A stretch of DNA of 34,250 bases from an uncultured Gammaproteobacteria bacterium (GCA_964642485.1 CAZXPA010000002.1:1-34250); one strand, 5' to 3'; counted from the first letter of the stretch, positions 7,238 to 34,089 are shown. Made by a program: numbers and translations. The notes: generated by a model from the letters alone, not told the origin.

Positions 7238-7282
7238 ACCTTCATATTATGATTTAAAAATAAGCTCATGTCAAGCCATGTC

Positions 7283-7447: not shown

Positions 7448-8644
7448 TTAGACCCAACCCAAAACCATGGCCAAACCTAAGATAAAAATAATTATTCCGG
7501 CAATTAAATGTAAATACCTGATGTTTTTATTTTTCCAGTCAGAAATATCTTGAACCTTAGCAATGCTTAAATAAACAATCCCAATAATAACCAGCATTGG
7601 TAAAACAAAAACTAAGTTATAAAGCAACAACCAGGGCAAAGACCTTAACAACCCTAAAGGAGATAAAATTCCTCCACAAATCACATAAGGACCAATTGTA
7701 CAGGGTAATAAAAATATTGTCACAAAAGCGCCAACAACAAAAGCTCCAACAGGTGAAGTAATGCTAGAAATTATTTTTTCAACCTTTGGCCTTAAGAACA
7801 TGGGCATTTCTGTACCAAAACTACCGGGTTTGTATCTAAAAAAATCTCTGATATTTAAAATTCCTAAAACAATTGCCAAAACACCTAAAACCTTATACAG
7901 CCATAATCGAATATTGGTTAAAGCTTGGACTAATTGAAAAAACTTAACAATTACTAAACCATAAAAAAGATACATGACAAAAACAGAAAAAACAAAAGCC
8001 AGGCCAGCCAACAAAACCTTCTTCTTGTTTTCTGGATTATAAGTAAGAATAGTAATTAACATTAAAATTAAAACTGCTAAAGCGCAGGGATTTATTGCAT
8101 CTACAGCAGCCAAAGATAAAATCTTGGTTAAAGTAAATTCGAGCTGATCTTGTATTGGCCCTTCATTAATGGAGCCAAGAGACAAAATTTCTCCGCCCTG
8201 CCAAACATTTGGTTTACCCGGTAGAACATTGGCGCCTAGATGTTCAAAATCAATAGAGGTGCCATCAACCAGGGGGCATTCGTTGTTTTTTAAATCCTTA
8301 ATAACTGTCTCCATATCTTGCAAGATCGACCGGGCGCCAATAAGATGTTCTTTCTCGTTAAAAATAATTAAAGGAACGACTAGACCCGAGTTATAATTTG
8401 CATTATATTGAAGAATTAAGGGTGAGTTCTCTTTTTGTTGTTGGACTTCGTATTCAATAATAACTAAATCTGGATACTTTTCTTGTAAATCCCCTAGGAC
8501 GACTGGACTAACCTTGGCACAATGGGGACAATTAATACCAGTAAAATAAACTGCGCAAGTAAAATCTTGTTCAGCCTTAACTAGGTTGGGAAAAAGAAAA
8601 AAACAAACAATAAGAACAAAAATAAAAAAACCTTTTCTATTCAT
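7448..8644 (-). CDS. Thioredoxin-fold (CPHC) domain fused to a CcdA/DsbD-like membrane thiol-disulfide transporter
   Basis: Signal/TM N-terminus, a CxxC motif (INCPHCAKV), then a polytopic domain with membrane-embedded Cys motifs (AINPCALAV, LLPCTIGPY). Confidence 0.75.
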   Translation of the reverse strand: MNRKGFFIFVLIVCFFLFPNLVKAEQDFTCAVYFTGINCPHCAKVSPVVLGDLQEKYPDLVIIEYEVQQQKENSPLILQYNANYNSGLVVPLIIFNEKEHLIGARSILQDMETVIKDLKNNECPLVDGTSIDFEHLGANVLPGKPNVWQGGEILSLGSINEGPIQDQLEFTLTKILSLAAVDAINPCALAVLILMLITILTYNPENKKKVLLAGLAFVFSVFVMYLFYGLVIVKFFQLVQALTNIRLWLYKVLGVLAIVLGILNIRDFFRYKPGSFGTEMPMFLRPKVEKIISSITSPVGAFVVGAFVTIFLLPCTIGPYVICGGILSPLGLLRSLPWLLLYNLVFVLPMLVIIGIVYLSIAKVQDISDWKNKNIRYLHLIAGIIIFILGLAMVLGWV

Positions 8645-8656
8645 AAACTATAATAT

Positions 8657-9790
8657 TTATTTTACCATTGAAGCTATTTTTTTTGTCAAATTCTTTTCAA
8701 AAATATTAGGAATAACTTTTTGCGGTCTTGGATTTTTCACCAATGAGGCTAATTTTTTAGCCGCAGCAATTTTAATCTTATTGGTAATCTTTAAAACTCC
8801 ATTATCTATGGCCCCTTTAAAAATCCCCGGGAAAACTAAAGCATTATTAATCTGATTTGGAAAATCAGAACGACCAGTAGCAACAACTTTTGCTCCTGCT
8901 TGTTTAGCTAAATCTGGCATTATTTCTGGAACTGGATTAGCTAAAGCAAAAATTATAGCATTTTTATTCATTGTTCTGGCCCACTCTTTTTTTAAAACAC
9001 CAGCGCAAGAAACTCCAATAAAAACATCTTTGCCAAAAATAACATCCTTAAGCTTACCTTTTGCTCTCTTATGATTAGTCATTTTAGCAATCTCTTTTTT
9101 AGCAAAATTTAAATTAGGCCTTCCTTTGTAAATCGTTCCTTTACTGTCTAAAACAACAATATCTCTGGCCCCACAACTTAAAAAAATTTTAGTTATAGCA
9201 ATCCCTGCCGCTCCAGCACCATTAACGATAATCTTTACTTGCTTAATATTCTTATTTACTATCTTTAAAGCATTAATTAAAGCAGCTAAAACAACTATTG
9301 CTCCTCCATGCTGATCATCATGAAAAACAGGAATATCAAGCTCAGCAATTAATTGTTTTTCAATTTTAAAACATTCTGGAGCCGCAATATCTTCTAGGTT
9401 TATGCCCCCAAAACCAGGAGCAATTGCCTTAACAGCTTTGACAATTTCATTGCTTTTTTTCAAATCCAAACAAATTGGATAAGCGTCAATATTAGCAAAT
9501 TTTTTAAATAATAAACATTTACCTTCCATAACTGGCAAAGCTGCCTGAGGACCAATATCACCAAGCCCTAAAACTGCGGTTCCATTAGTAACAACAGCCA
9601 CACTATTTCCTTTTATAGTATATTTATAAATATTTTTAACGTCCTTAAAAATCTCTCTACAGGGCTGAGCTACTCCCGGAGTATAAGCAATGCTTAAATC
9701 TCTTTTATTTTTAAGAGGTAGTTTTGGTTTTATTTCTAATTTACCTCTTTTTTTTCGATGTTGTTTTAATGATTCTTTAAAATAATCCAT
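8657..9790 (-). CDS. NAD(P)-dependent malic enzyme (short MaeB-like form)
   Basis: Motifs DLSIAYTPGVAQPC and TNGTAVLGLGDIGPQAALPVMEGKCLLFK, plus Rossmann motif VNGAGAAG. The ATG at 9790 is preferred over the TTG at 9826. Confidence 0.9.
   Translation of the reverse strand: MDYFKESLKQHRKKRGKLEIKPKLPLKNKRDLSIAYTPGVAQPCREIFKDVKNIYKYTIKGNSVAVVTNGTAVLGLGDIGPQAALPVMEGKCLLFKKFANIDAYPICLDLKKSNEIVKAVKAIAPGFGGINLEDIAAPECFKIEKQLIAELDIPVFHDDQHGGAIVVLAALINALKIVNKNIKQVKIIVNGAGAAGIAITKIFLSCGARDIVVLDSKGTIYKGRPNLNFAKKEIAKMTNHKRAKGKLKDVIFGKDVFIGVSCAGVLKKEWARTMNKNAIIFALANPVPEIMPDLAKQAGAKVVATGRSDFPNQINNALVFPGIFKGAIDNGVLKITNKIKIAAAKKLASLVKNPRPQKVIPNIFEKNLTKKIASMVK
8659..8667 (-). promoter_or_regulatory. Extended -10 box TGgTAAAAT upstream of the Trx-CcdA gene
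   Basis: Minus-sense sequence aatggtaaaat; 14 nt separate the box from the ATG at 8644. Confidence 0.4.
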
Positions 9791-9945: not shown

Positions 9946-10018
9946 GCCGAGGTAGCTCAGTGGTACCTGCCTGCCGGCAGGCAGGCCTGCCTGCCGGCAG
10001 GCAGGGAGCAAATGGCTG
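9946..10018 (+). pseudogene. Disrupted 5' half of tRNA-Phe (positions 1-34)
   Basis: gccgaggtagctcagtggta, then a 40-nt palindrome insert, then gagcaaatggctg. This matches nt 1-34 of the downstream tRNA-Phe except for two stem bases. Confidence 0.8.
9966..10005. repeat. Two tandem perfect 20-nt palindromes (cctgcctgccggcaggcagg x2)
   Basis: Read directly from the sequence. The insert sits in the D-loop of the tRNA-Phe 5' fragment. Confidence 0.95.
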
Positions 10019-10031
10019 GTTTCAAATTTCT

Positions 10032-10274
10032 ATGACTTATAAAGTCTACGCTATTAAAAATAAAAAGGGAAGGATTTATATTGGACTAACAAAAAACATA
10101 AATCAACGATTAAAAGATCATAATAGTGGAAAAGTTTTTTCAACAAAAGGTTATAGACCGTGGGATTTATTTTATAATGAATTTTGTACAGATAGGATTA
10201 AAGCGCGGAAACGCGAAAAATTTTTAAAATCAGGCTGTGGTAAAGAATTTCTTAAAAAACTCATGCCGAGGTAG
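10032..10274 (+). CDS. Small GIY-YIG nuclease-family protein (80 aa)
   Basis: YKVYAIKNKKGRIYIGLTKNINQRLKDHNSG...REKFLKSGCG matches the GIY-YIG/UPF0213 pattern. The TAG stop lies inside tRNA-Phe. Confidence 0.85.
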   Translation: MTYKVYAIKNKKGRIYIGLTKNINQRLKDHNSGKVFSTKGYRPWDLFYNEFCTDRIKARKREKFLKSGCGKEFLKKLMPR

Positions 10275-10336
10275 CTCAGTGGTAGAGCAAAAGACTGAAA
10301 ACCATTGTGTCGGCAGTTCGATTCTGCCCCTCGGCA
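10265..10336 (+). tRNA. tRNA-Phe(GAA), no encoded CCA, weakened anticodon stem
   Basis: Acceptor GCCGAGG/CCTCGGC, loop CTGAAAA, T-arm GGCAG-TTCGATT-CTGCC. The anticodon stem AAAGA/CCATT has two mismatches. Confidence 0.75.
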
Positions 10337-10361
10337 CCTATTGATAACTATTATTAACATA

Positions 10362-10431: not shown

Positions 10432-10692
10432 TCAAGTATACAAGTTACTGTGACTGTCTATGACGACAAAAATACATTCCTCTTCACTAATAAATTTATA
10501 AACAGCCCTTAAGTCTCCTGTTATATTAATACTCCGATAATCAGTATATTTTCCTTTTAAAGGGTGGTTATTAAGCCGAGAATTAAATGGATTTTTTAAA
10601 AATAATTCTAATCTTTCGCACACTTTTTCCTGTTCTTTTTTCTTTGGTTTCTTATATTGCTTTTCAAAATTCTTGTGAAAACGGATCTTCAT
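10432..10692 (-). CDS. RelE/YafQ-family type II toxin
   Basis: 86 aa with HPLKGKYTDYRSINITGDLRAVY, typical of RelE/ParE-fold toxins. Overlaps the antitoxin gene by 4 nt. Confidence 0.8.
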   Translation of the reverse strand: MKIRFHKNFEKQYKKPKKKEQEKVCERLELFLKNPFNSRLNNHPLKGKYTDYRSINITGDLRAVYKFISEEECIFVVIDSHSNLYT

Positions 10693-10964
10693 AAGGAAGT
10701 CAAATGTTTTTTAAATTCTTTTTTAGAAGAAAAATCACGTGATATATTTCTGTTTCTCTGAATATCAAATTCTATCTTACCTAAAAGCTTTTCCAGTTCC
10801 GGAGACATTTTAGGAGTAATGCTAAAATGAACCTCTTTATTTCTGACAAACTGCTTTAAATAGGCGTTAATAACTGCGCTCAAAGAAAGTCCTATTTCCT
10901 TAGCAAGTTTCTGAGCGCGAGCCTTTACCTCTTTTTCTGTTTTTATATTAATTACTACTCTCAT
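10689..10964 (-). CDS. RelB/DinJ-family antitoxin
   Basis: MRVVINIKTEKEVKARAQKLAKEIGLSLSAVINAYLKQFV resembles a ribbon-helix-helix N-terminus. The ATG at 10964 is preferred over 11000. Confidence 0.7.
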   Translation of the reverse strand: MRVVINIKTEKEVKARAQKLAKEIGLSLSAVINAYLKQFVRNKEVHFSITPKMSPELEKLLGKIEFDIQRNRNISRDFSSKKEFKKHLTSL

Positions 10965-11105
10965 ATACCTAAAGTATATACAATGGTTAATAGATGTCAA
11001 GAGACTATTTGTGGAAAACTTTAAGAACCTGCTCTAAAAATTTTGGCTTCTTTTTGTTATTTTTACTCATTTTGCAGATTGTCGTAGTTTATCATAATAT
11101 AGAAG

Positions 11106-13567: not shown

Positions 13568-14153
13568 GTTTATTCTTTAAAAAATTTTTAATCATTTGAA
13601 TAGCTTTTTTCTTAATTTTGCTGATACCCTCTTTGTTGTTATCAACAATAAGATCATATATCTTTTTTTGTCTTAAATTAATTCCATAAAGTTGCTGGTA
13701 ACGCTTTTGATCCCCGTTATCTCTCTGCTCAATCATTTCTCTGGCCTGGGAAAGTGTTAAATTATTTCTTTGACTTAGTCTTTTAATTCGAATTGATTTC
13801 CTACAATCAACAAAAATCTTACAATCAGAAAAATCACCAGACGCCCAACCAGCCAACCGGCCAGCAATAACGTAGCCCCCTTTCATAGCAGTCTTTAACA
13901 TCTGCTCATCTATAAAATAATCAACCTTTGCTGGTAAAGTTTTAGATGCCTTTCCTAATGAAATCTTTCTTTTTCTAGCAAATTTTCTCAGGATATCGCC
14001 GGCATTTATGAATTCTAATTTGAAATAACGAGCTATTTCTTTAGCAATTGTATCTTTGCCTGAAGCAGCAAATCCTGAGACAGTGATGGTTAACCCTTTT
14101 TTTCTAATTACTGCTTTTTCGTGTCTTTTTAGAAATTTTAAATATGTTCCCAT
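13527..14153 (-). CDS. cmk: Cytidylate kinase-like P-loop kinase
   Basis: P-loop-like motif [11 protein letters not shown], adjacent to FINAGDILR. About 200 aa, archaeal-type cmk-like. Confidence 0.7.
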
Positions 14154-17151: not shown

Positions 17152-17226
17152 TGGTGGGCGTAGATGGATTTGAACCATCGACCTTTTCTTTATCAGAGAA
17201 ACGCTCTACCCCTGAGCTATACGCCC
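17152..17226 (-). tRNA. tRNA-Ile(GAU), CCA encoded
   Basis: GGGCGTA..TTTCT-CTGATAA-AGAAA..GATGG-TTCAAAT-CCATC-TACGCCC-A-CCA. Confidence 0.9.
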
Positions 17227-17240
17227 AAAATCATTCTATC

Positions 17241-17265
17241 ATTTTAACAATATAACATTTTAACA
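17241..17265 (-). promoter_or_regulatory. Two tandem extended -10 boxes (TGtTAAAAT) upstream of tRNA-Ile
   Basis: Minus-sense tgttaaaatgttatattgttaaaatgatagaatgatttt, then the tRNA. The proximal box ends 14 nt from the tRNA 5' end. Confidence 0.55.
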
Positions 17266-17371
17266 AAAACATTTCAACTATATGATTGCATAATAATAGA
17301 ATAACAAAAAAACCAGTTAAAATCAATCCCTCACCCAGAATTTATGCATTTTTTAATGCGAAGCATATATC

Positions 17372-17409: not shown

Positions 17410-17627
17410 GTTTTATATACACACTTTCAAAAATGCTGAGCATTAAATGAGCAGGTTCTTATAAATTCCGGGTAAGAGATGAAGAATTTGTCAAAGGCAG
17501 AGAGAGCCAACCTTTACCTTACCTTGAATCTTATATGATTCAAGGGTCGACCTCGTTACTGTTAAACAGCAACTGAGTCCTCTAAATGAGGTGATCCACC
17601 CACAGCTTCCGCTACGGGTGCCTTGTT

Positions 17628-17939
17628 CATGTTATTCCCTATGTTTCCATGGGCACGGACTATATCTTCACCCCCTTCTTTCGATCGAAAGGAGGGGGGC
17701 CAACGTATGATAACAGTTTGATTCTCTAATAAACTTAGAGCCCCTGCTATCAAAGGTATAAACCTTAAGTCTCTACGGGGCGAAGCACTCAACGCCTTGA
17801 GTGCTCGCTTCCCACGATGTTGCCTTCATGCCTTTATTTTAGCATAAAATGACTAAAAAATAAAGAGTAAGGGTTCACCGTTATAGTTGGGTTTTTCTTA
17901 AGGATTACTCCCTAAGGTCGCAATTTACAGGTTGTAACC
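17628..17939 (-). mobile_element. Group I intron (312 nt, no ORF) at E. coli-equivalent position about 1498
   Basis: Interrupts AAGTCGT|AACAAGG. The 5' exon ends in U and the intron ends in G. Core-like GTAGAGACTTAAGG and GAAGATATAGTCCGT elements. GCGAC can pair with exon GUCGU, with a U-G pair at the splice site. Confidence 0.8.
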
Positions 17940-18358
17940 ACGACTTCGCCCCTGTTACCAATCCTACCTTATTCCCGCGAACGCGGACTTTCGGGTATTA
18001 CCGGCTTCCTTGGCGTGACGGGCAGTGAGTACAAAGTTTGGGAACGTATTCACCGTACCGTAGCTGATATACGGTTACTAGCGATTCCAGCTTCATGAGG
18101 TCGAGTTGCAGACCTCAATCCGAACTGAGACCGGCTTTGATGGGATTAGCTCCGCCTTACGGCTTTGCGACCCTTTGTACCGGCCATTGTACCACGTGTG
18201 TTGCCCAGGGCATAAGGGCCATGCTGATTTGACGTCGTCCCCACCTTCCTCCGGCTCATCACCGGCAGTCCTCTTAGAGTGCCCAACTTCTTAAAAGAAT
18301 GATGGCAACTAAGAGCAAGGGTTGCGCTCGTTTCCCCACTTAAGGGTACACGTCACCG

Positions 18359-18389
<31 letters not shown>

Positions 18390-18519
18390 ACTAGGTTCCG
18401 ATTTTACGGTCAGTCAACCTTTCGGCTAACCTACAACCTAGCGAGTCAAGCCCTGGTGAGGTTCTTCGCTTAGCATCGAATTAAACCACATGGTCCACCG
18501 CTTGTGCAAACTCCCGTCT

Positions 18520-18551
<32 letters not shown>

Positions 18552-18932
18552 TCCCAGGCGGGATGCTTAACGCGTTAGCTTTTTTACTGCGGCACTGAAA
18601 GGGTCGACACTTCCAATGCCCAGCATCCATCGTTTACGGCGTGGAATACCGGGGTATCTAATCCCGTTCTCTCCCCACGCTTTCGTGTCTCAGCGTCAGA
18701 ACTGTTCTAGCAAGCTGCCTTCGCATTCGGTGTTCCTGCCGATATTAACGGATTCTACCCCTACACCGGCAGTTCCACTTGCCTCTCCCAGTCTCTAGTT
18801 TAATAGTTTTTCTGGCGCTCCCAATGTTGAGCAAAGGGCTTTAACCAGAAACTTATTAAACCGCCTACACACGCTTTACGCCCAGTAAATCCGGATAACG
18901 CTTGTCGCCTTCGTCTTACCGCAGCTGCTGGC

Positions 18933-19380
18933 TGTATACTCATAATAGAGTAATTGCTACGGACTATATCACAATCCTTTTTTATAAATAAAAGGACCCT
19001 CGGCGTATGATAACAGTTTATAATTCCAGATTATCTGGCACCTGTTATCTCATCGCTTAATATTTAGCTTTAAGCGAATCAGTCTCTGAGGGGTTAATCC
19101 CGACTTGTCGGGACAACTTCCCTGCTGATTGCCTATAAGCTGTTTCGTCATAAACGAAATGCAGCAAAATCTTAAAGTTTAGATAAGAATTTTAACCTTT
19201 TCAAACTTCAAGGTTCTGGCAAAGCCAGGTTCTTATAGTTTGGCAATAAGATATTATACCTTTCAAACTTCAAGGTTCTGGCAAAGCCAGGTTCTTATAG
19301 GTTTCCAGCATATAAGCCAAGTTTTTCAACTTCGATTACTCGAAGAAGTCGCGCTCTTTGATAAGACGAAAATTAATTGC
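18933..19380 (-). mobile_element. Group I intron (about 448 nt, no ORF) at E. coli-equivalent position about 516
   Basis: Interrupts CTTCGT|GCCAGCAGC. Core-like CTCAGAGACTGATT and GTGATATAGTCCGT. Shares aaactgttatcatacg with the other intron. Boundaries are ambiguous by 1-2 nt. Confidence 0.75.
19195..19300. repeat. 43-44 bp direct repeat (period 63 bp) inside the position-516 intron
   Basis: acctttt-caaacttcaaggttctggcaaagccaggttcttatag at 19195-19238 and again at 19258-19300, differing by one T. Confidence 0.9.
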
Positions 19381-19821
19381 ACGAAGTTAGCTGCGACTTA
19401 TTCCTGGGGTACACTCAACCGAAGCTTGTTCCCCCAGAAAAGCAGTTTACACTCCGAAAAGATTCATCCTGCACGCGGCGTCGCTCCTTCAGCCTTTCGG
19501 CCATTGAGGAAGATTCTTGACTGCAGCCCCCCGTAGGAGATTGAGCAGTGTCTCAGTCTCAATGAGGCGGATCATGCTCTCACACCCGCTACCCGTCATC
19601 GGCTTGGTAGGCCATTACCCTACCAACAACCTGATGGGCCATAAGCTCCTCAGAAAGCGCGATTGCTCGCTTTACTAAGCACTCAATATGAGTGCTCAGC
19701 ATATGGGGTATTAGCCTCGATTTCTCGAGGTTATTCCCCTCTTTCCGGCAGATTACTAATGTGTTACTCTCCCGTTTGCCACTGCCTGATAAATCAGGCC
19801 GTTCGACTTGCATGCCTTAGA

Positions 19822-19861
<40 letters not shown>

Positions 19862-19933
19862 TTAAAAAAGATTTGATCTAATAAATAAAAGGAATAGATT
19901 GGCTAATTCTCTACCTTTGACAAATTCTTCATT

Positions 19934-19996: not shown

Positions 19997-20080
19997 TTGT
20001 TAAAGAACTGGTTGGGTACTTAGGTACTTAGTTAATTGGGGATTAATTAATTTGCTCTTCCCAATGACCCGATTACCCAA

Positions 20081-20761
20081 TTACCCGATTACCTGATGTG
20101 TCCGCCACTCTTTTACTTTCTGATGATCGCCTGAAAGTAAAACCTTTGGCGCCTTCAGCTTCTTTAGCTTACCAAACTTATCTTTATATGTAAAGACCTC
20201 TGGACGAGTATATTGTGGATATTCAATATTAATTGATGATTTAAAAGAAAAGCTCTCTTCTTCTAAAGATTCTGCTTTAATCACCCCAGGAATTAACCTG
20301 GCAACCGCATCAACAATTATCATGGCAGGGATTTCTCCGCCTGTCAAGATATAAGAACCGATAGAAATTTGTTCATCAACAAACTTTGTTACCCTTTCGT
20401 CAACCCCCTCATACCGACCACAAATTAGAACCACTCTTTCTGTTCTTGACAATCTCCTGGCTGTCTTTTGATCAAGTTGCTTACCTTTTGGGGTTAATAA
20501 AATAATTCTTAATTTTTTATTTATATTTTTGGTTTTACTTAAACTTCTTATTGCTCTATATAAAGGAGGGAGTTTAAGAATCATTCCCGGCCCACCGCCA
20601 TAAGGTTTATCATCTACTGTTTTGTGCTTGTCAGTAGTCCATTTTCTAAGGTTATGAACCTTAATTTTAATGAATTTCTTTTTCTGGGCCCGAGCAATAA
20701 TCGAGGTATTAAAATAGGAATCAAAAATATGAGGAAATATTGTAATAATATCAAACTGCAT
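20081..20761 (-). CDS. trmD: tRNA (guanine37-N1)-methyltransferase TrmD
   Basis: MQFDIITIFP, DDKPYGGGPGM, LICGRYEGVDERV and SIGSYILTGGEIPAMIIVDAV. Confidence 0.95.
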   Translation of the reverse strand: MQFDIITIFPHIFDSYFNTSIIARAQKKKFIKIKVHNLRKWTTDKHKTVDDKPYGGGPGMILKLPPLYRAIRSLSKTKNINKKLRIILLTPKGKQLDQKTARRLSRTERVVLICGRYEGVDERVTKFVDEQISIGSYILTGGEIPAMIIVDAVARLIPGVIKAESLEEESFSFKSSINIEYPQYTRPEVFTYKDKFGKLKKLKAPKVLLSGDHQKVKEWRTHQVIG

Positions 20762-21425: not shown

Positions 21426-21749
21426 TCAACCCCCCTCTTTTTTTGGCTTCTTTTTTACTGCTCTTTCCTTTTTACCCTTTTTCTTGTGTACCCTGGTTAC
21501 CTTAACTTTTTTGCCCTTAATAATCCCTTGCTTAATTAATAAATTATGAACTGAACCAGTTGACTGAGCTCCTTGAGAAAGCCAATATTTTATCCGCTCA
21601 ACTTTAAGAACGGTCTTTTTTGTTAAGGGGTTTAAAAATCCTAAATCTTCTAAAAAATCCCCCCGAGGATCTTTAGCTTTTTCCAATAAAATTATTCGAA
21701 AAAACGGTTGATTTTTTTTTCCTTTTCGACTTAACTTGATCGCTAACAT
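21426..21749 (-). CDS. rpsP: 30S ribosomal protein S16 with basic C-terminal extension
   Basis: MLAIKLSRKGKKNQPFFRIIL...RIKYWLSQGAQSTGSV. Confidence 0.95.
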   Translation of the reverse strand: MLAIKLSRKGKKNQPFFRIILLEKAKDPRGDFLEDLGFLNPLTKKTVLKVERIKYWLSQGAQSTGSVHNLLIKQGIIKGKKVKVTRVHKKKGKKERAVKKKPKKEGG

Positions 21750-21758
21750 AACAAAATC

Positions 21759-21767
21759 ATTTTAACA
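21759..21767 (-). promoter_or_regulatory. Extended -10 box TGtTAAAAT, 9 nt upstream of the rpsP ATG (second copy at 21783-21791)
   Basis: Minus-sense aatgttaaaatgattttgttATG. Confidence 0.5.
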
Positions 21768-21885
21768 TTAGAACATTGGAACATTTTAACATAATCTTTT
21801 AAAAAAGCAATGAGTGTTTTATTTATTCATAGCATTCGCATACATTCGCTCGCCTCGTCTCCGAGTCGGAGCGGGTAGATTGGCA

Positions 21886-22608
21886 TTATTTTTGTGCTTT
21901 CTTGGCCACTAAATTACTGGCCCTGAGTAAAGAATCAAATGTGCCGGCATCTGACCAAAACCCTTTAACAACCTCAAAAGAAGCTGTTTTTTGGTTGATA
22001 TAGAAATTATTTACATCAGTAATCTCTAATTCTCCTCTTTGAGAGGGTTTTAAGGTCTTAATTACATCAAAAACTTGACCATCATACATATAAAGACCAG
22101 TTACAGCATATTGACTCTTTGGTTTTTTCGGTTTTTCTTCAATCTTGATTATCTTTTTCCCTTTAAGCTGAGCCACGCCAAAACGTTCTGGATCTGAAAC
22201 TTTCTTTAAAAAAACCTTAGCTCCCCATTTTTGATTTTCAAAATCCTTAACTGCCCTAGTAAAATCATCTTCAAAAATATTATCACCTAAAATAACCACT
22301 ACCTTACCAGTGTCAGCAAAATCTTCAGCCAAGCCCAGGGCCTCAGCAATCCCCCCAGATCCTTCCTGATAAGTATAATGAATCTCTTTTAAACCAAACT
22401 CTTTTCCATTGCCCAAAAGTTTTAGAAAATCACCTGGGTTATTACCACCAGTAACAATTAAAACCTCCTTAATGCCCGCATTGACCAGCGTTTCTAAAGG
22501 ATAATAGATCATAGGCTTCTTAAAAACTGCTAAACAATGTTTGTTGGTGACTTTTGTTAAGGGGAGTAACCGGGTTCCGGTTCCCCCGGCAAGAATGATT
22601 CCCTTCAT
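21886..22608 (-). CDS. Sugar-phosphate nucleotidyltransferase (glucose-1-phosphate thymidylyl/uridylyltransferase-like)
   Basis: MKGIILAGGTGTRLLPLT signature, and a short (240 aa) RfbA-like fold. Confidence 0.85.
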   Translation of the reverse strand: MKGIILAGGTGTRLLPLTKVTNKHCLAVFKKPMIYYPLETLVNAGIKEVLIVTGGNNPGDFLKLLGNGKEFGLKEIHYTYQEGSGGIAEALGLAEDFADTGKVVVILGDNIFEDDFTRAVKDFENQKWGAKVFLKKVSDPERFGVAQLKGKKIIKIEEKPKKPKSQYAVTGLYMYDGQVFDVIKTLKPSQRGELEITDVNNFYINQKTASFEVVKGFWSDAGTFDSLLRASNLVAKKAQK

Positions 22609-23492
22609 ATATTTATTGATTTAATCTTCTTTTTTATTAATAAAAACTTGTTATATTTCCTGCGCATCCTATTAACATTTCGACTATCCTTATATAACCA
22701 TTCTAGAATTCTAAGCGCTTGTATATTCCCTCTATATCTTAATGCATAATGATCTCTATTCTTTATATTATTAGTCAATCTTGTTTCACCTACCTTACAA
22801 TATTTAATCAAATAATTCTGGATACTTTTTAAAAGACTTTTTGTCCCTACAATCTGAAAACAAAGAGAGAAATGCCTTTCATCAAACATTATGCTGCCAT
22901 CGCCCTCAAAAATACCCCGAATAAAACTTTTAAAAATATCCTCTCTGTCTTTTTCCTCTATCTCTTTTAAGAATCTTTCGTTTAGAGACTTCTTTTCTCT
23001 CAGACCAAGAGCGATCAATCTATCCACTACATATTCATTATGAATATGTAATGCCAGCTGACCAGAGCAATTGATCATTACTCCCTTAGAAGAGATTCTG
23101 CTATAGGGTGAACGTTTATATAAAGGCCCAGTATATTGCAAAAATTTTTTAATTTTTAAGAGCACGTCTTGATCGCTCATTCTTATCGCAATCCCAAAAT
23201 ATTTAATTGGTCTTAACCTTATAAAACCGTCGCTTAATAACCAGCCTAATACCCATGCAACATCAGGAGTAATTTTATCAAAAAACTTCTCATTTGCGCT
23301 ATATTTAGTTCTATAAAGAGATAGCTTCCATGTCTTATTTCGAATTTCAATATCAAACCCTTTTAATCGATGACTGATCACCCATCGAGAACACCCAACT
23401 GTACGAGCTATTTCATCTTGACTCAATTTATTTTCTATATATTCATTAACCAAAAACTTTTTTGATATTTTATATTGTAATTCTGTTGGCAT
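22605..23492 (-). CDS. Free-standing LAGLIDADG homing endonuclease-like protein with N-terminal HTH
   Basis: LGWLLSDGFI and IRGIFEGDGSI motifs, plus an N-terminal LSQDEIARTVGCSRWVISHRLK helix-turn-helix. ATGA overlap with the downstream gene. Confidence 0.8.
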   Translation of the reverse strand: MPTELQYKISKKFLVNEYIENKLSQDEIARTVGCSRWVISHRLKGFDIEIRNKTWKLSLYRTKYSANEKFFDKITPDVAWVLGWLLSDGFIRLRPIKYFGIAIRMSDQDVLLKIKKFLQYTGPLYKRSPYSRISSKGVMINCSGQLALHIHNEYVVDRLIALGLREKKSLNERFLKEIEEKDREDIFKSFIRGIFEGDGSIMFDERHFSLCFQIVGTKSLLKSIQNYLIKYCKVGETRLTNNIKNRDHYALRYRGNIQALRILEWLYKDSRNVNRMRRKYNKFLLIKKKIKSINI

Positions 23493-27251: not shown

Positions 27252-27431
27252 CTAAATCTTCATTTTCTTTTTTAAACTCTTTAAACACTTAGTACAGATC
27301 TTTATCCTCTTGCCAGATATTTTTTTTGTCTGTAAATTTAAATATTGCCATCTTTTAGTAGCGATATTTGAGTGAGATCTGGTAATGCTTGTTTTGGGCC
27401 CGCGGCCGCAAATTAAACAACGTTTAGCCAT
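27252..27431 (-). CDS. rpmB: 50S ribosomal protein L28
   Basis: MAKRCLICGRGPKTSITRSHSNIATKRWQYLNLQ...CTKCLKS. The ATG at 27431 is preferred over 27482. Confidence 0.9.
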   Translation of the reverse strand: MAKRCLICGRGPKTSITRSHSNIATKRWQYLNLQTKKISGKRIKICTKCLKSLKKKMKI

Positions 27432-27529
27432 AATAAAAGCAATTAAACAAATAAACAACTTAACATAAAAATAGTTTAGCAAATTTCTAAATTAAAGCAA
27501 TCTTTTTTATTATTGCTAAATTGCTAAAT

Positions 27530-27538
27530 TGCTAAAAT
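27530..27538 (+). promoter_or_regulatory. Extended -10 box TGcTAAAAT, 8 nt upstream of the M50 protease ATG
   Basis: attgctaa occurs three times in tandem (27512-27537), ending in tgctaaaat-gatttcaa-ATG. Confidence 0.5.
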
Positions 27539-27546
27539 GATTTCAA

Positions 27547-28155
27547 ATGATTAAACTTTTTTTATACATAGTTATTGTTCTCTCAGCTATCTTTCATGAA
27601 TACGCTCATGCCTGGACAGCTTATCAATTAGGAGACCCAACTGCTAAAAATGAAGGTCGATTAACCCTAAACCCCTTAGTTCATTTAGACCCTATTGGCA
27701 CAGTAATTCTCCCTCTTTTCCTGTTATTCACTTCAGGCATGTTTCTTGGTTGGGCTAAGCCTGTTCCTTATAATCCTCATAATCTTAGAGACCTAAAATA
27801 CGGCACCTTAAAAGTCGCTATTGCCGGTCCTTTGGCCAATCTCTTGATTGCCTTAGTTTTGGGCCTAATTTTAAGGTTTTTCTCTGGCCCTATTTTAGCC
27901 TATAGCGCTACTTTACCAGTTTTTTTAGGTCTTATCATTTACGTTAATATTTTCTTGGCCCTATTTAACTTGCTGCCTTTTCCTCCGCTTGATGGTTCAA
28001 AAATATTTGCCGACTTGTTTCCAAATCAATGGCGACATCTTATGCAATTAGGAATGATTGGAATTTTTATTGCTTTATTCATTGCCTTTTTTATCCTTTC
28101 GCCAATAGCTAACTTCATTTTCCGTCTTATTATCGGCCAAGGATTTATGTTCTAG
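27547..28155 (+). CDS. Site-2 protease family (M50) membrane metalloprotease
   Basis: HEYAHAW (HExxH) within a polytopic membrane protein, and LPFPPLDGSK. Confidence 0.85.
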   Translation: MIKLFLYIVIVLSAIFHEYAHAWTAYQLGDPTAKNEGRLTLNPLVHLDPIGTVILPLFLLFTSGMFLGWAKPVPYNPHNLRDLKYGTLKVAIAGPLANLLIALVLGLILRFFSGPILAYSATLPVFLGLIIYVNIFLALFNLLPFPPLDGSKIFADLFPNQWRHLMQLGMIGIFIALFIAFFILSPIANFIFRLIIGQGFMF

Positions 28156-28312
28156 TCCCTGCTACTCTCGTAATGCTTGACATTTCTAAGAAATAAAGTA
28201 AAATACAGGTCATCATAATATATAACATGGCAACATGAGAACATTTCCTGCCTGCGGCAGGTAAAAAAAGAAATTTCTATAAAGCAAAATTTCTTATGTT
28301 CCAATGTTCCAA

Positions 28313-28321
28313 TGCTAAAAT
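28313..28321 (+). promoter_or_regulatory. Extended -10 box TGcTAAAAT, 8 nt upstream of the rpsL ATG
   Basis: atgttccaatgttccaatgctaaaat-gaattagt-ATG. Confidence 0.5.
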
Positions 28322-28329
28322 GAATTAGT

Positions 28330-28755
28330 ATGCCAACAATTAATCAATTGGTCCGTAAAGGAAGAAAAAAAATAAAGAAGAAATCAAAGACTCCTGCTTT
28401 GCAGAGCACTTTTAATATTCTTAAAAGAACAAGAGCTGAAATGCCAAAAGGACGTCCATTTTTGCGCGGCGTTTGTTTGAAAGTCACCACTCAAACTCCT
28501 AAAAAACCTAATTCAGCCCTACGTAAAATTGCTCGCGTCAGATTGTCTAATGGCATGGAGGTCACTGCCTATATCCCGGGCATTGGTCATAATTTACAAG
28601 AGCATTCAGTGGTTCTGCTCAGAGGCGGCCGAGTTAAAGATCTGCCTGGTGTCCGCTATCACGTTGTTCGCGGTGTTCATGATGCTGGAGGGGTTGAGAA
28701 CAGGAAACAAAGTCGAAGTCTTTATGGAACAAAAAAAGAGAAGTCAGGTACTTAG
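28330..28755 (+). CDS. rpsL: 30S ribosomal protein S12
   Basis: [12 protein letters not shown]...KKPNSALRK...[14 protein letters not shown]. Confidence 0.97.
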
Positions 28756-28824
28756 GTACTTCGGTAATCAGGTATTAACCCAATCCCTAATCCCCAATTA
28801 ACCAATTAACTAATTAACCAACTT

Positions 28825-29298
28825 ATGCGTGGAAAACCAGCCCCCAAAAGAAAAATCTCTCCTGATCCCAAGTACCATCTTGTTCAAATGGCTAAATTTA
28901 TTAATTACGTGATGAGAAAAGGCAAAAAAACTATTGCCTCAAAAACGGTTTATCAGGCCATAGAGATCATTAAGCAAAAAATTAAAAAAGACCCAATTGA
29001 TATCTTCCAAAAAGCAATTAAAAATACTTCTCCCGTAGTCGAAGTAAGATCTCGTCGAATTGGCGGAGCTAATTACCAAATCCCCTTCCCAACAAATGAA
29101 TCCCGCCGTTTTGTTTTAGCCTCACGCTGGATTATTGAGGCAGCTAAAGCCCGAAAAGGCAAATCAATGTCAGAAAAATTAGCTCAAGAACTTTTAGATG
29201 CCGCCTACAGGCAAGGCGCCGCCGTTAAGAAAAAAGAGGATATCCATCGAATAGCTGAAGCAAATAAGGCCTTTGCTCATTTTGCTAGATATCATTAA
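28825..29298 (+). CDS. rpsG: 30S ribosomal protein S7
   Basis: PDPKY...VEVRSRRIGGANYQIP...ANKAFAHF. Confidence 0.97.
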   Translation: MRGKPAPKRKISPDPKYHLVQMAKFINYVMRKGKKTIASKTVYQAIEIIKQKIKKDPIDIFQKAIKNTSPVVEVRSRRIGGANYQIPFPTNESRRFVLASRWIIEAAKARKGKSMSEKLAQELLDAAYRQGAAVKKKEDIHRIAEANKAFAHFARYH

Positions 29299-29414
29299 AT
29301 CATTTTAATATTCTAACGTTTTAACATATTAACATGCCCCCCCCCTCTAATCTCCCCCTCCCAGAGGGACGGGGAGAAAATTGTTAAATTGTTTCATTGT
29401 TAAATTAGCTTAAT

Positions 29415-31517
29415 ATGTCTGATGAATTTTCATTAGAAAAAACCCGTAATATCGGTATTATTGCCCATATTGACGCTGGTAAAACTACGGTTACCGAGCG
29501 TATTTTATATTATACTGGAAAAAAACATAAAGTTGGTGAGGTTCATAAAGGTCAAGCAGAAATGGATTGGATGGCTCAGGAAAGAGAACGGGGCGTAACC
29601 ATTACTGCTGCCGCCACAACTGTTTTTTGGGCTCCACTTAAACAAAAAGAAATCCGCATTAATATTATTGACACCCCTGGTCACATTGACTTTACAGCTG
29701 AAGTTCAGCGATCTTTACGAGTCCTTGATGGCGGAATAGTTGTTTTTGACGGTGTAGCTGGAGTTGAACCACAATCAGAAACAGTTTATCATCAAGCAGA
29801 AAAATTCAAGATTCCTTTAATTGCTTTTATTAATAAAATGGATCGAGTAGGAGCCAACTTCTATGCTGATTTAGCTTCAATTCATGAACGTTTAACTCCT
29901 AATGCTTACCCTTTACAATTACCAATTGGCGCTGAAGCAGATTTTAAGGGTATAGTTGATTTATTTACCCGCCGGGCCAAAATTTACTTAGACGAAATGG
30001 GGAAAGAAATTAAAGACGAAGAAATCCCAGCAAACCTTAAGGATAAAGTCGAGGAATACCGACATAAATTAATTGAGGCAATTGTTGAACATGATGAAAA
30101 ATTAATGCATCAATATTTAGGGGGCAAAGAACCAGACATTAATGATTTAAAAAAAGTTTTACGGCAGGCAGTTATCAAGAATAAAATAGTCCCTGTCTTA
30201 TGCGGTTCAGCTTTAAAAAATAAAGGAATTCAATTATTATTAGACGCTATTTGCGATTACCTGCCTTCTCCCTTAGACGTTCCACCAATTGAGGGAATTA
30301 TCCCAAAAACTGGTGAGAAACAAACACGTCCTTCGGACAAGGATAAACCTTTTGCTGCTCTGGCTTTTAAAATTGCCACTGATCCTTATGTTGGTCGTCT
30401 ATGTTACCTTCGAGTTTATTCTGGCGCTTTATTAGCAGGCTCATATGTCTTGAATGCCACTACTGGTAACAAAGAAAGGGTCGGACGGATTGTTCAAATG
30501 CATGCTAATCAACGAAAAGAGCTCAAACAGGTTCTTGCTGGAGAAATTGCTGCAATTGTTGGAATAAAAAACACAAGTACTGGCGATACTCTTTGTGCCT
30601 CCGCCCACCCAATCGTTTTAGAATCAATTACTTTCCCTGAGCCAGTTATTTCTGTGGCTATTGAGCCAAAAACTAAAACTGACCAAGAAAAAATGGGCCT
30701 GGCAATTACTAAATTAGTCGAAGAAGACCCAACTTTTAAGGTAAAAACTGATGAAGAAACCGGGCAAACGATCATCTCTGGCATGGGCGAGCTTCATTTA
30801 GAAATCATTGTTGACCGCCTAAAGCGCGAATTTAGTGTTAATGCCAATGTTGGTCAGCCGCGAGTCGCTTACAAAGAAACCATTACTTCAATAGTTGAAA
30901 GTGAAGGAAAATATATTCATCAATCAGGTGGCCGCGGTCAATATGGCCATTGTTGGCTTAAACTTGAACCATTAGAAAGAAATAAAGGATTTGAATTTGT
31001 AGATAAAATCAAGGGGGGGACCATTCCTAAAGAATATATTCCAGCAATTAAAAAGGGCGTAATTGAAGCCATGGCGACCGGGGTTTTAGCTGGTTATCCA
31101 GTTATTGACATGATGACTACTGTTTATGATGGTTCTTTCCATGAAGTTGATTCTTCAGAGGCAGCTTTTAAAATTGCTGCTAATCGAGCTATTCGTGACG
31201 GCGTCAGAAAAGCTAAACCAATCCTTTTAGAACCAGTGATGAAAATTGAAGTTGTTGCTCCAGAAAAATTTATGGGCGAGGTAATTGGTGACCTTAATTC
31301 CAGACGAGCTCAAATTCAAGGGACAAAAACGCGTGGGCAAATAAAATTAGTTGACGCCTTAGCCCCTTTAGCAGAAATGTTTGGCTACACTACTGCCCTA
31401 CGATCAATTACCGAAGGCCGAGGCAGTTCAACTATGGAATTCTCTCATTACGCTCAAGTTCCACGTAATATTCAAGAAGAAATAGTTGGCGAAACAATTG
31501 AGAAAAAAGAAAAATAA
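29415..31517 (+). CDS. fusA: Elongation factor G
   Basis: [22 protein letters not shown], and domain IV/V motifs. 700 aa, in the str-operon position. Confidence 0.97.
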
Positions 31518-32067: not shown

Positions 32068-32151
32068 CAGAAACAAATTAACAACTAAACAACTTAACAA
32101 TTAAACAAAGAATAAAAAAAACAAAATCAATTCCATGGGATTTTGTTAGAA

Positions 32152-32168
32152 TGTTAAAATGTTAAAAT
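32152..32168 (+). promoter_or_regulatory. Two overlapping extended -10 boxes (TGtTAAAAT x2), 6 nt upstream of the infC GTG
   Basis: atgttaaaatgttaaaat-gattta-GTG. Confidence 0.45.
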
Positions 32169-32174
32169 GATTTA

Positions 32175-32681
32175 GTGAAGTACTATCGCTTTAACAATCA
32201 AATATCTGCAACCCAGGTTCGCTTGATTGACGAAAATGGTAAACATTTAGGTACAATTGAAACCACTAAAGCCTTAGAGATGGCTCGAGGAAAAGGATTA
32301 GATTTAGTAGAAATCGACCCAAAAGTAGATCCACCAATAGCAAAAATTCTGGATTTTGGTCGATTTAAATATGAACTAAAGAGAAAAGATCGACAACAAA
32401 AAAAACAACATAAGGCCGGCGGTATTAAAGGGATTCGTCTGACACCAAGAATCGGCAAACATGACTTAGAGCTCCGAGTTACTAAGGCTAGAGAGTTTCT
32501 TTTAGAAAAACAAAAAATAAAAATTGAAATGGTTCTCCGGGGCAGAGAAAAAGCCCACTTTGATCTGGCTGAGAAACTGGTGAAACACTTTATTGAATTG
32601 CTTGGCGAAGAAATAAAAATTGAACAACCGCCAAAAAGACAAGGTAGCCGGTTGATTGCTGTGATTAGCCCTACCAAGTAA
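32175..32681 (+). CDS. infC: Translation initiation factor IF-3
   Basis: NNQISATQVRLIDENGKHLG...LDLVEI...PIAKILDFGRFKYE. Non-ATG (GTG) start, as is usual for infC. Confidence 0.95.
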   Translation: MKYYRFNNQISATQVRLIDENGKHLGTIETTKALEMARGKGLDLVEIDPKVDPPIAKILDFGRFKYELKRKDRQQKKQHKAGGIKGIRLTPRIGKHDLELRVTKAREFLLEKQKIKIEMVLRGREKAHFDLAEKLVKHFIELLGEEIKIEQPPKRQGSRLIAVISPTK

Positions 32682-32886: not shown

Positions 32887-33019
32887 CCTTACTAAAGTAC
32901 CAATCCTTACTAATAGTACAAATAAATCTATCAGTGAAATTGGTATAAATCCGTACATTCGTAAGGTCCTACTAATTTATTGGTAAAATTAGTATTTATT
33001 TGTAATTTTGTAAGGTCCT

Positions 33020-33566: not shown

Positions 33567-34064
33567 CTATATTCTTAGCCAGCGATTCAGGCGATCAATT
33601 AAAGTTTCTTCTTCTTTACTTAAATCTTCTTCTAAATACTCTTTTAAAATCTTACGAATCTCTAAGGGGTTCTGGCCTTCTAAAGAAACAGAAAGATCTG
33701 GTATTAAAACACTTTTTAAATCAAGATAAAGTCTTTTTGTTTCTGGCGGTCGATAAACAAGACGGAAATTTCTAATTTCTGACCATTCATAGAACCTTGA
33801 CCCGACCATTAAACCATCTTCAAAAACTTTGAACTCAACCTTTATTGGTGTGCGTCTAAGATGGAGAATAAAAATCAGGCCAAATAAAACCAAAAAAAGA
33901 GTAAAAAGAAAATTAGCTGTTAAAAAAGAATAAAAAATGGCGATCACCAGAACAAGACCAACAATCACATACCACGACTTACTTCTCTGGTACTGAGTAT
34001 ATTCTGGAAAGTGCCATTTTAAAATAACTTGACCGTGGTCTTCTTCTTTTTTTTCTTTAGGCAT
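33567..34064 (-). CDS. Hypothetical membrane protein (2 TM + soluble C-terminal domain)
   Basis: Two adjacent hydrophobic helices (WYVIVGLVLVIAIFYSF, FLFTLFLVLFGLIFIL). No recognisable family. Confidence 0.6.
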   Translation of the reverse strand: MPKEKKEEDHGQVILKWHFPEYTQYQRSKSWYVIVGLVLVIAIFYSFLTANFLFTLFLVLFGLIFILHLRRTPIKVEFKVFEDGLMVGSRFYEWSEIRNFRLVYRPPETKRLYLDLKSVLIPDLSVSLEGQNPLEIRKILKEYLEEDLSKEEETLIDRLNRWLRI

Positions 34065-34089
34065 AGTAAATTAAATTATCAAAAATTCA

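Follow-up and report, generated by a model that had tools for sequence, protein, structure and literature searches.

What is the short AT-rich box that stands a few nucleotides (nt) before the start codons of rpsL and other core translation genes in a 34,250-nt stretch of DNA from an uncultured bacterium (GCA_964642485.1, CAZXPA010000002.1:1-34250; this whole stretch is referred to here as the window): a promoter, a ribosome-binding site (RBS) or a by-product of spacer evolution? A preliminary description of the sequence had offered three answers for this box, TGYTAAAATGA, namely an extended -10 promoter element that gives leaderless mRNAs, an altered Shine-Dalgarno (SD) sequence that pairs with an unusual 16S rRNA tail, and the opening of mini upstream open reading frames (mini-uORFs). 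Based on sequence comparison, we propose with moderate confidence that the box is the proximal unit of tandemly duplicated extended -10 elements, whose position predicts mRNAs that are leaderless or carry leaders of 1-3 nt.

The window (36% GC) is a fragment of a Patescibacteria (candidate phyla radiation, CPR) genome of the Parcubacteria/Falkowbacteria-Uhrbacteria type. It contains one 16S rRNA gene, 12 tRNA genes and one tmRNA gene, while its protein genes include rpsL-rpsG-fusA, infC-rpmI-rplT, rpsP, trmD, rpmB and an M50 protease gene. The CCUCCU anti-SD motif is present in only 48% of Parcubacteria, and the study reporting this left the mode of initiation open (PMC9297842, Tsurumaki et al. 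2022).

A box resembling an extended -10 element adjoins gene starts

Seven exact copies of TGYTAAAATGA occur in the window, against 0.17 ± 0.38 expected from dinucleotide shuffles. An excess was also found when up to one mismatch was allowed (14 versus 3.96 expected) and when a 16-mer, AATGYTAAAATGAWTT, was searched with up to two mismatches (7 versus 0.75). Of the seven exact copies, five are directed towards a nearby gene, namely rpsL, the M50 protease gene, infC, rpsP and the gene for tRNA-Ile. The looser pattern TGnTAnnnT has 111 matches in the window, seven of which lie 6-9 nt before a gene start (all spacings given here are the distance between the start codon and the hexamer's final T). 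Fewer than one such match would be expected by chance on our estimate, and an assumed mean of 0.7 gives a Poisson tail of P ~ 1e-5. A -10-like hexamer at 6-9 nt was found for 10 of the 23 genes with an upstream gap of at least 25 nt and for none of the 12 internal genes (gap below 25 nt; Fisher p = 0.007), a contrast that has to be read with the greater AT-richness of intergenic DNA in mind.

The hallmarks of an extended -10 element (TG at -15/-14, A at -11 and T at -7) are present at seven loci in the window, as TG(C/T)TAAAAT at rpsL, M50, infC, rpsP and tRNA-Ile, as TGTTAAATT at fusA and as TGATAATTT at a gene for a 165-amino-acid (aa) protein. Spacings of the leaderless type are 6, 8, 8, 8 and 9 nt, to which an HlyD-family gene adds 8 nt with a full -35 element. 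Leaderless transcription is known by a Pribnow box that precedes the start codon by 6-8 nt (PMC6028130), and the 6-9 nt spacing of the box matches this signature. The elements belong to tandem words with a period of 8 (ATTGCTAA x3.1 and ATGTTCCA x2.4), in which the constant part across arrays is TG-n-TAAA(A/T)T and the gene-nearest copy is the best -10, the distal copies being decayed at -11/-10 (TCCAAT, TCTAAT, TTCATT). AUG is not a conserved feature of the words, since those of M50, fusA and tRNA-Ile carry TTG instead of ATG. The box positions given in the preliminary description for rpsL, M50, infC, rpsP, tRNA-Ile and the Trx-CcdA gene all check out, and the tandem words it had pointed to are real. 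Its suggestion that these words act as UP elements or -35 substitutes is not needed, as arrays of 7-8-nt words are a general, fast-evolving feature of spacers in this clade.

Each 8-bp word core would therefore be read as an extended -10 element, (A/T)(A/T)TG-n-TAAA(A/T)T, with the last and best-preserved copy 6-9 nt from the start codon, or 6 nt from the 5' end of tRNA-Ile. From this position, RNA polymerase would start at the start codon or 1-3 nt before it, and we infer that the resulting transcripts of rpsL, rpsP, infC, fusA and M50 would be leaderless or near-leaderless and translated as such. Older -35/-10 promoters and the upstream copies would provide alternative long or short leaders. 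Initiation must be SD-independent in any case, because there is neither a canonical anti-SD nor any SD usage. The arrays themselves would arise and turn over by 8-bp slippage and cassette replacement, and both the complementarity of AAAUGA to 16S rRNA and the mini-ORFs would be by-products of the word sequence.

Relatives preserve a probable -10 element

A scan of genome contigs with S7 returned only relatives of at most 72% identity, which is the identity of the best matches among GTDB genomes, and a TrmD scan of metagenomes returned at most 65%. Closer relatives were obtained through rpsL and rpsP homolog look-ups. The closest is a sister genome (L140/L143), 95-98% identical over common segments. 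A second tier comprises L133, L134, L130 and L137 (rpsL identity 89-92%), and a third L002 and L003 (rpsL 86-88% identical) together with L082 (rpsP 78% identical). The 200-aa 'S12' proteins P0002-P0006 are chimeric duplications and were left out of the comparison.

At rpsL, the array ATGTTCCA-ATGTTCCA-ATGCTAAA-ATGAATTAGT-ATG occupies 28296-28332 on the plus strand in period-8 words; the box lies at 28313-28323, with the extended -10 TGCTAAAAT at 28313-28321, 8 nt before the ATG at 28330. L140 has this box unchanged (100% conserved) together with one additional 8-nt word. The box is also conserved in L134 and L133, while it is damaged in L002 (TGTTTTAAT-GACTTT-ATG) and absent in L130, L137 and L003. 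The M50 protease array (27512-27549, plus) consists of period-8 words, three copies of ATTGCTAA followed by AATGATTTCAA-ATG, and its box at 27530-27540 places TGCTAAAAT 8 nt before the ATG at 27547. The L140 counterpart has an additional 8-nt word as well as TAAAATAATTT, with a G-to-A change that gives TAAAATAATTTCAA-ATG, by which AAUGA is lost and TAAAAT-8-ATG is kept (TAAAAT-AATTTCAA-ATG). The fusA array, AAATTGTT-AAATTGTT-TCATTGTT-AAATTAGCTTAAT-ATG (29378-29417, plus), has TGTTAAATT 8 nt before ATG and no AAUGA. It reads TGCTAAATT in L140, where only the free 'n' within the element is altered, the discriminator bases also differ and the 8-nt spacing is kept.

Three tandem extended -10 elements precede infC in the array TTGTTAGA-ATGTTAAA-ATGTTAAA-ATGATTTA-GTG (32143-32177, plus), and the box at 32160-32170 holds the last of them, 6 nt before the GTG at 32175. 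L002 has TAAAAT-6-TTG without AAUGA at this gene, and in L140 the whole spacer is replaced and the start is probably ATT or ATA (approximately 13797-13802). Non-AUG infC starts are thus found throughout the group (GTG in the window, TTG in L002 and ATT/ATA in L140, for which the gene caller chose a downstream TTG). Autoregulation by initiation factor 3 (IF3), the infC product, is known elsewhere, and the non-AUG starts are consistent with it.

The rpsP region (21747-21810, minus) comprises a distal TTGCTT-16-TGTTAAAAT, three 8-nt words and a second TGTTAAAAT 9 nt before ATG, the box being at 21767-21757 and the ATG at 21749. L082/L083 have the simpler TTGCTT-16-TGATAGAAT-9-ATG, in comparison with which the window has the same TTGCTT-16 with TGTTAAAAT, three additional words and a second TGTTAAAAT at the same 9 nt. 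Related elements were found before other genes: SmpB has TG(G/C)TATAAT 6-9 nt before ATG in L133 and L140, and trmD has TATAAT 6-7 nt before ATG in eight relatives. In addition, TGTTAAAAT occurs at ordinary promoter distances in relatives, approximately 30-55 nt before GT4 (L133, L134) and 108 nt before rpsP (L143). This is how a -10 element behaves, and such distances are impossible for an RBS.

The tRNA-Ile array (17222-17277, minus) also argues for a promoter, as the same array here precedes a tRNA gene and lies downstream of a clear 16S terminator. It contains TTGAAA-17-TGTTATATT flanked by two copies of TGTTAAAAT, with the box 14 nt upstream of the tRNA and a further TGATAGAAT 6 nt from its 5' end. 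A complete promoter, TTGACA-17-CATAAT-8-ATG (7235-7274, minus), stands at leaderless distance from the HlyD-family start, and the N-terminus of the HlyD-family protein, MKIKKKYNFIIIL, offers no alternative Met. The gene for the 165-aa protein has TGATAATTT-8-ATG (34062-34081, minus), which reads TAATAATTT in L140, with loss of the TG. The Trx-CcdA gene instead carries a short-leader promoter, TTGACA-19-TGGTAAAAT-14-ATG (8642-8689, minus), in which the GA extension of the box is missing.

Upstream promoters would place some boxes within leaders

A number of observations weigh against leaderless transcription from the box. A distal rpsL promoter, P1 (TTGACA-16-TAAAAT, 28177-28204, plus), lies approximately 125 nt upstream of the ATG; it is near-consensus, scores 11/12 as the strongest sigma-70 match between 17 and 34 kb, and is kept by all the rpsL relatives that were examined. 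Downstream of P1 is a predicted structured leader (28228-28311, plus), in which the GC hairpin CCUGCCUGCGGCAGG is enclosed by the pairing of AACAUG..GAACAUU with the first ATGTTCC words (fold z = -4.5; an equivalent stem is present in L134). Since P1 and this conserved structured leader are upstream, the rpsL box is inside at least one transcript. The conserved distal rpsP promoter likewise places the rpsP box inside a leader, and in L143 a different cassette puts 108 nt between this promoter and the ATG, so an SD-less mRNA with a leader can evidently be translated. An alternative upstream promoter is therefore present at both genes, unlike at a strictly leaderless gene. Spacings of 8-9 nt also predict leaders of 1-3 nt and not strictly leaderless mRNA.

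Further points of this kind come from the arrays themselves. Across Parcubacteria relatives, unrelated 7-8-nt word arrays also end 5-10 nt before starts, so distance alone is not specific to a -10 element. The proximal rpsL hexamer of L002 is TTTAAT, without the A at -11, and AAUGA is still kept. The divergent rpmB array, TGTTAAGT-TGTTTATT-TGTTTAAT-TGCTTTTATT (27429-27465, minus), adjoins the ATG at 27431 but has no intact -10 at 6-9 nt from it. The two exact box copies that do not face a gene are intragenic, at 9079 (minus) and 10820 (plus). These are missing from the preliminary description, as is a near-perfect copy antisense at the rpsG stop (29297-29312, minus); the latter is part of an array, ATGTTAAT-ATGTTAAA-ACGTTAGA-ATATTAAA-ATGATTTA-ATG (29293-29335, minus), behind which there is only a 33-aa antisense ORF. 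Finally, our literature search returned no transcription start site (TSS) or RNA data for Parcubacteria, and nothing specific on leaderless mRNA or SD usage in Patescibacteria/Parcubacteria.

A crude survey of first ATGs gave no general -10 peak at 6-9 nt among S7 relatives, and the 6-9 nt peak among trmD relatives is mostly trmD itself, from which we conclude that a leaderless architecture would be specific to particular genes or lineages and not clade-wide. The leaderless proposal of the preliminary description is nonetheless the best supported of its answers, given the invariant TG-n-TAAA(A/T)T, the 6-9 nt spacing and the retention of the -10 in relatives, but at rpsL and rpsP the box would also be contained in a leader made from conserved promoters further upstream. 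Partly because upstream promoters also feed the box genes, our confidence is only moderate.

The predicted structure of the approximately 125-nt rpsL leader (28205-28329, plus) is kept in L140 and L134. This region could be an unrecognised ribosomal-protein leader; at the gathering score, none of the leaders is matched by an Rfam family. The 76-aa ORF with a TTG start at 27252-27431 (minus) is rpmB (L28), with its true start at ATG 27431 (MAKRCLICG...). It is divergent from M50, and the 115-nt spacer between the two genes consists of two opposed word arrays.

The altered 16S rRNA tail and the ribosome-binding alternative

The 16S rRNA gene (17581-19867, minus) is interrupted by two group-I-like insertions, at 18957-19373 (Rfam E=5e-6) and 17637-17938 (E=5e-8), both below the gathering score. 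The second insertion, of approximately 300 nt, hides the true 3' exon and, because it interrupts the gene, the Rfam 16S match stops at 17913. Past this insertion the 3' exon reads ...AACAAGGCACCCGTAGCGGAAGCTGTGGGTGGATCACCTCATTTAGA, ending near 17581, where the gene sequence at 17597-17581 (minus) is GGATCACCTCATTTAGA. The true 3' end, GGAUCACCUCAUUUAGA (17581-17597, minus), has CCUCA in place of the anti-SD CCUCC, and once the 3' group-I-like intron is recognised the tail is GGAUCACCUCAUUU. The intron-less relative L082 has the same exon junction and the same tail, GGATCACCTCATTT, so that CCUCAUUU is common to the window and L082. The unusual tail UCAUUU that had been noted earlier is thus correct, lies in the exon beyond the insertion and is confirmed by L082.

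This tail gives substance to an RNA-level alternative, in which AAAUGA, 4-7 nt before the start, pairs with UCAUUU, or in which the box serves as an unstructured standby site. Such an element would replace the lost SD/anti-SD pair and would be transcribed from the upstream promoters or from upstream -10 copies. The complementarity is real, as had been claimed: the tail is indeed CCUCAUUU, and the AAAUGA:UCAUUU duplex has an energy of -4.1 to -4.7 kcal/mol at an SD-like spacing. The location of the rpsL and rpsP boxes inside leaders made from conserved upstream promoters fits this proposal, as does the tendency of arrays of any word to end 5-10 nt before starts. At rpsL, the window, L140, L134, L133 and L002 all keep AAUGA 4-6 nt ahead of the ATG, despite the damaged L002 -10, and L134 offers two further cases, AAAUGA 7 nt before the ATG of the internal gene FeHyd and AAUGAGG at RecO.

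As a mechanism, however, pairing with the tail is not supported by the comparison. SD energetics gave no signal across 34 window genes with either the observed or the canonical tail, and complementarity to the tail is not enriched (mean duplex -3.16 kcal/mol upstream versus -3.39 kcal/mol in the control). Only four of the 34 genes carry the motif, and no internal gene does, rpsG, rpmI and rplT included. L082 has the same tail, yet the motif precedes none of 13 genes there (rpsP and 12 others). The L140 M50 gene has lost AAUGA by its G-to-A change but kept TAAAAT, whereas fusA, the 165-aa gene and the HlyD gene of the window have a -10 without AAUGA, and the same array stands before a tRNA. Nowhere is the box extended to AAAUGAGG, a far better partner for pairing, and the start-adjacent cassettes of the sister genome, TAGTATCGATTAT-ATG, CGTAAGGTCCT-ATG and CCAATTAAC..ATG, lack such complementarity. 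We therefore treat the AAAUGA/16S complementarity as coincidental or at most auxiliary, and regard an RNA-level role for the box as rather unlikely, if worth keeping in mind.

The ATG within the box could alternatively open a regulatory mini-uORF of 2-5 codons, whose stop abuts or overlaps the main start and couples the two by termination-reinitiation. The ORFs reported earlier are present as sequence: ATG AAT TAG precedes rpsL, ATG ATT TAG overlaps the infC GTG, and the L002 words form a chain, AUG-NNN-UAAUG. Neither frame, length nor stop is conserved, though, as in L133 and L002 the last uORF continues into rpsL in another frame, L140 M50 has lost the ATG, and the M50, fusA and tRNA-Ile words have TTG in its place. 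An equivalent ATG ATA GAA TGA also precedes tRNA-Ile. Since frame and length vary and one example stands before a tRNA, the mini-ORFs are a by-product of the words, and we consider a regulatory function highly improbable.

The surroundings of the 16S gene were also annotated. A leader/trailer processing stem of approximately 25 bp flanks it (19936-19908 pairs with 17503-17479, minus), a boxA, GTTCTTTAACAA, lies upstream at 20008-19997, and a canonical intrinsic terminator follows at 17408-17375 (minus), with no 23S gene behind it. Because of this terminator, tRNA-Ile and tRNA-Val form a separate unit. The sequence TAAAATGAAG, approximately 70 nt upstream of 16S, was considered as a promoter before a non-coding gene and rejected, as it is the 5' strand of the processing stem; it is also downstream of boxA, and its L143 counterpart reads TTGAATGAAG. 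Within the first 16S insertion there is a 62-nt tandem unit (x1.9) at 19183-19300.

Word arrays and exchangeable spacer cassettes

Arrays with a period of 7 or 8 were surveyed in the window and in loci L004-L025 and L084-L116. Their density is 15-23 per 100 kb for the window and Parcubacteria relatives but 1.3 per 100 kb for Saccharibacteria and other loci, which makes them 10-20x more frequent in Parcubacteria-type loci. The majority (107 of 141) are outside long ORFs and, in co-directional spacers, their median distance is 8 nt to the downstream start versus 53.5 nt to the upstream stop. The words are unrelated among loci (TAAATCA, AATTGAT, AGTTACG, GCATTTT, CCAATTAA and others). Between the window and L140/L143, the infC, rpsP, rpsG, rplT and trmD spacers hold different cassettes, and some cassette families recur before different genes. 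At infC and rpsP this amounts to presence/absence polymorphism of the kind seen with miniature inverted-repeat transposable elements (MITEs), with box arrays in the window and another cassette in L140/L143, at 96-97% identity. An inverted arm, a GC hairpin and a forward arm follow one another at rpsG-fusA (z = -3.65), tmRNA-infC and the rpsL leader; rpsP and tRNA-Ile lack this layout.

One cassette family has GGTACTT/GGTAATC words ... CCCAATC ... CCAATTAAC words and is partly self-complementary. It was located at 28746-28821 (plus) and 20015-20093 in the window, and upstream of rplT in L140 and L130 and of infB in L143, directly before the start codons of different genes in different genomes. 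Another family consists of TTAGTATA words ending TAG(T/C)ATCGATTAT(T)-ATG, and a further one of GTACTTTCGTAAGGTCCT-ATG. Sites of these two families are L140 10420-10545 (rpsG), L143 9885-9998 (rpsP), and the upstream regions of L143 trmD, L140 HypC and window rplT (33000-33019). Where the window has the TGnTAAAAT box, the sister genome has TTAGTATA-word or GTACTTTCGTAAGGTCCT cassettes, or vice versa.

The rpsL-rpsG and rpsG-fusA spacers are 69 nt (28756-28824) and 116 nt (29299-29414) in the window and approximately 124 and 116 nt in L140, while in L130, L134 and L137 (S12 89-92% identical) they measure no more than 4-17 nt. Insertion of hairpin-plus-array cassettes seems to have divided the str operon.

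These dynamics speak for a largely neutral explanation, in which the box would be one spread cassette of slippage-prone 7-8-bp arrays, its likeness to a -10 would follow from AT-rich words, real expression would come from the older -35/-10 promoters, and the cassettes would be of a portable inverted-repeat type. The abundance of arrays (15-23 versus 1.3 per 100 kb), the variable number of words, the swapping of whole spacers at infC, rpsP, rpsG and rplT between genomes that are 96-97% identical, the antisense and intragenic box copies, and the GC hairpins framed by inverted words at rpsG-fusA, tmRNA-infC and the rpsL leader are all as this would predict. The short rpsL-rpsG-fusA spacers of close relatives also count in its favour, since they indicate that the arrays are dispensable. 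By-product status accounts less well for the proximal copy being the best -10 in every case and the distal ones being decayed, for substitutions between close genomes that spare TG and TAAAWT, and for a 40-fold over-representation of TGYTAAAATGA that is concentrated before highly expressed translation genes; furthermore, the hairpin-plus-array at rpsG-fusA would demand a new fusA promoter if the hairpin terminates. A largely neutral origin seems unlikely to us. Neither this cassette and slippage origin nor an RNA-level role, each of low probability, is mutually exclusive with the box being a promoter.

More speculatively, and with a still lower probability, the start-adjacent arrays of 7-8-nt words might form a clade-wide, fast-evolving and portable system of 'initiation cassettes' in Parcubacteria without an anti-SD. 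If so, the families (the TGnTAAAAT box, TAGTATCGATTAT, CGTAAGGTCCT and CCAATTAAC) would supply a promoter and/or an unstructured landing region for ribosomes, would serve SD-independent initiation, including leaderless initiation, and could be retuned in expression by 8-bp slippage.

Other features of the window

A GIY-YIG nuclease ORF (9960-10274, plus) ends inside the gene for tRNA-Phe (10265-10338) and has two copies of a 20-nt palindromic repeat, CCTGCCTGCCGGCAGGCAGG, at its 5' end (9966-10005). A YafQ/RelB-type toxin-antitoxin pair is encoded at 10432-11000 (minus), and the intragenic box copy at 10820 (plus) is antisense in the antitoxin gene. Additionally, a 295-aa ORF (22605-23492, minus) has weak LAGLIDADG similarity, and the truncated first ORF (21-334, plus) contains tandem units of 102-114 nt (x2-3).

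Comparison with known systems

Read as tandem extended -10 elements, the arrays make the window a concrete candidate for how core translation genes could be initiated in Parcubacteria that lack an anti-SD, and the tempting complementarity of a 'new SD' to the altered 16S tail does not hold up across relatives. By changing 7-8-nt words, very small genomes that have few regulators could adjust expression in a simple way, and the arrays are relevant to gene-start prediction in CPR genomes.

The closest parallel is with the leaderless promoters of the GeneMarkS-2 'group C' genomes, such as those of Actinobacteria and Deinococcus, where the Pribnow box is 6-8 nt from the starts of operons' first genes (PMC6028130). 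As in those genomes, the box genes have no SD and start with AUG or GUG, and the window elements stand at 6-9 nt, only before genes with upstream gaps. Unlike them, the window element is TG-extended and very AT-rich (TGnTAAAAT), is iterated 2-4x in an 8-bp register, usually lacks a -35, and is found at only about a third of window genes in a Patescibacteria host with a mutated anti-SD.

In the extended -10 promoters of Firmicutes and Escherichia coli (TGn, or 'TRTG -16 region'), TG lies one base before the hexamer and the -35 is dispensable. Relatives of the window carry TGATAGAAT, TGGTATAAT and TGTTATAAT at normal promoter positions in the same manner, while the window element differs from those of Firmicutes and E. 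coli in being tandemly repeated and directly abutting the coding sequence.

The Correia elements of Neisseria are promoter-bearing miniature inverted-repeat elements, short dispersed intergenic cassettes with outward-facing -10-like ends. The window cassettes may resemble them in the inverted arms of some copies, their presence or absence between close genomes and their -10-like ends beside genes, but their arms are built of 8-nt tandem words and several copies have no inverted arm.

The absence of CCUCCU from the window 16S agrees with the loss of the anti-SD in part of the Parcubacteria (PMC9297842), to which the present analysis adds an actual tail, CCUCAUUU, and a candidate initiation architecture, promoters and leaders not being discussed in that study. 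Taken singly, leaderless promoters, extended -10 elements and the loss of the anti-SD are already known; what is new is that the element is iterated in tandem at 8 bp, that it is found in a CPR genome, and that start-adjacent word arrays occur across the clade.

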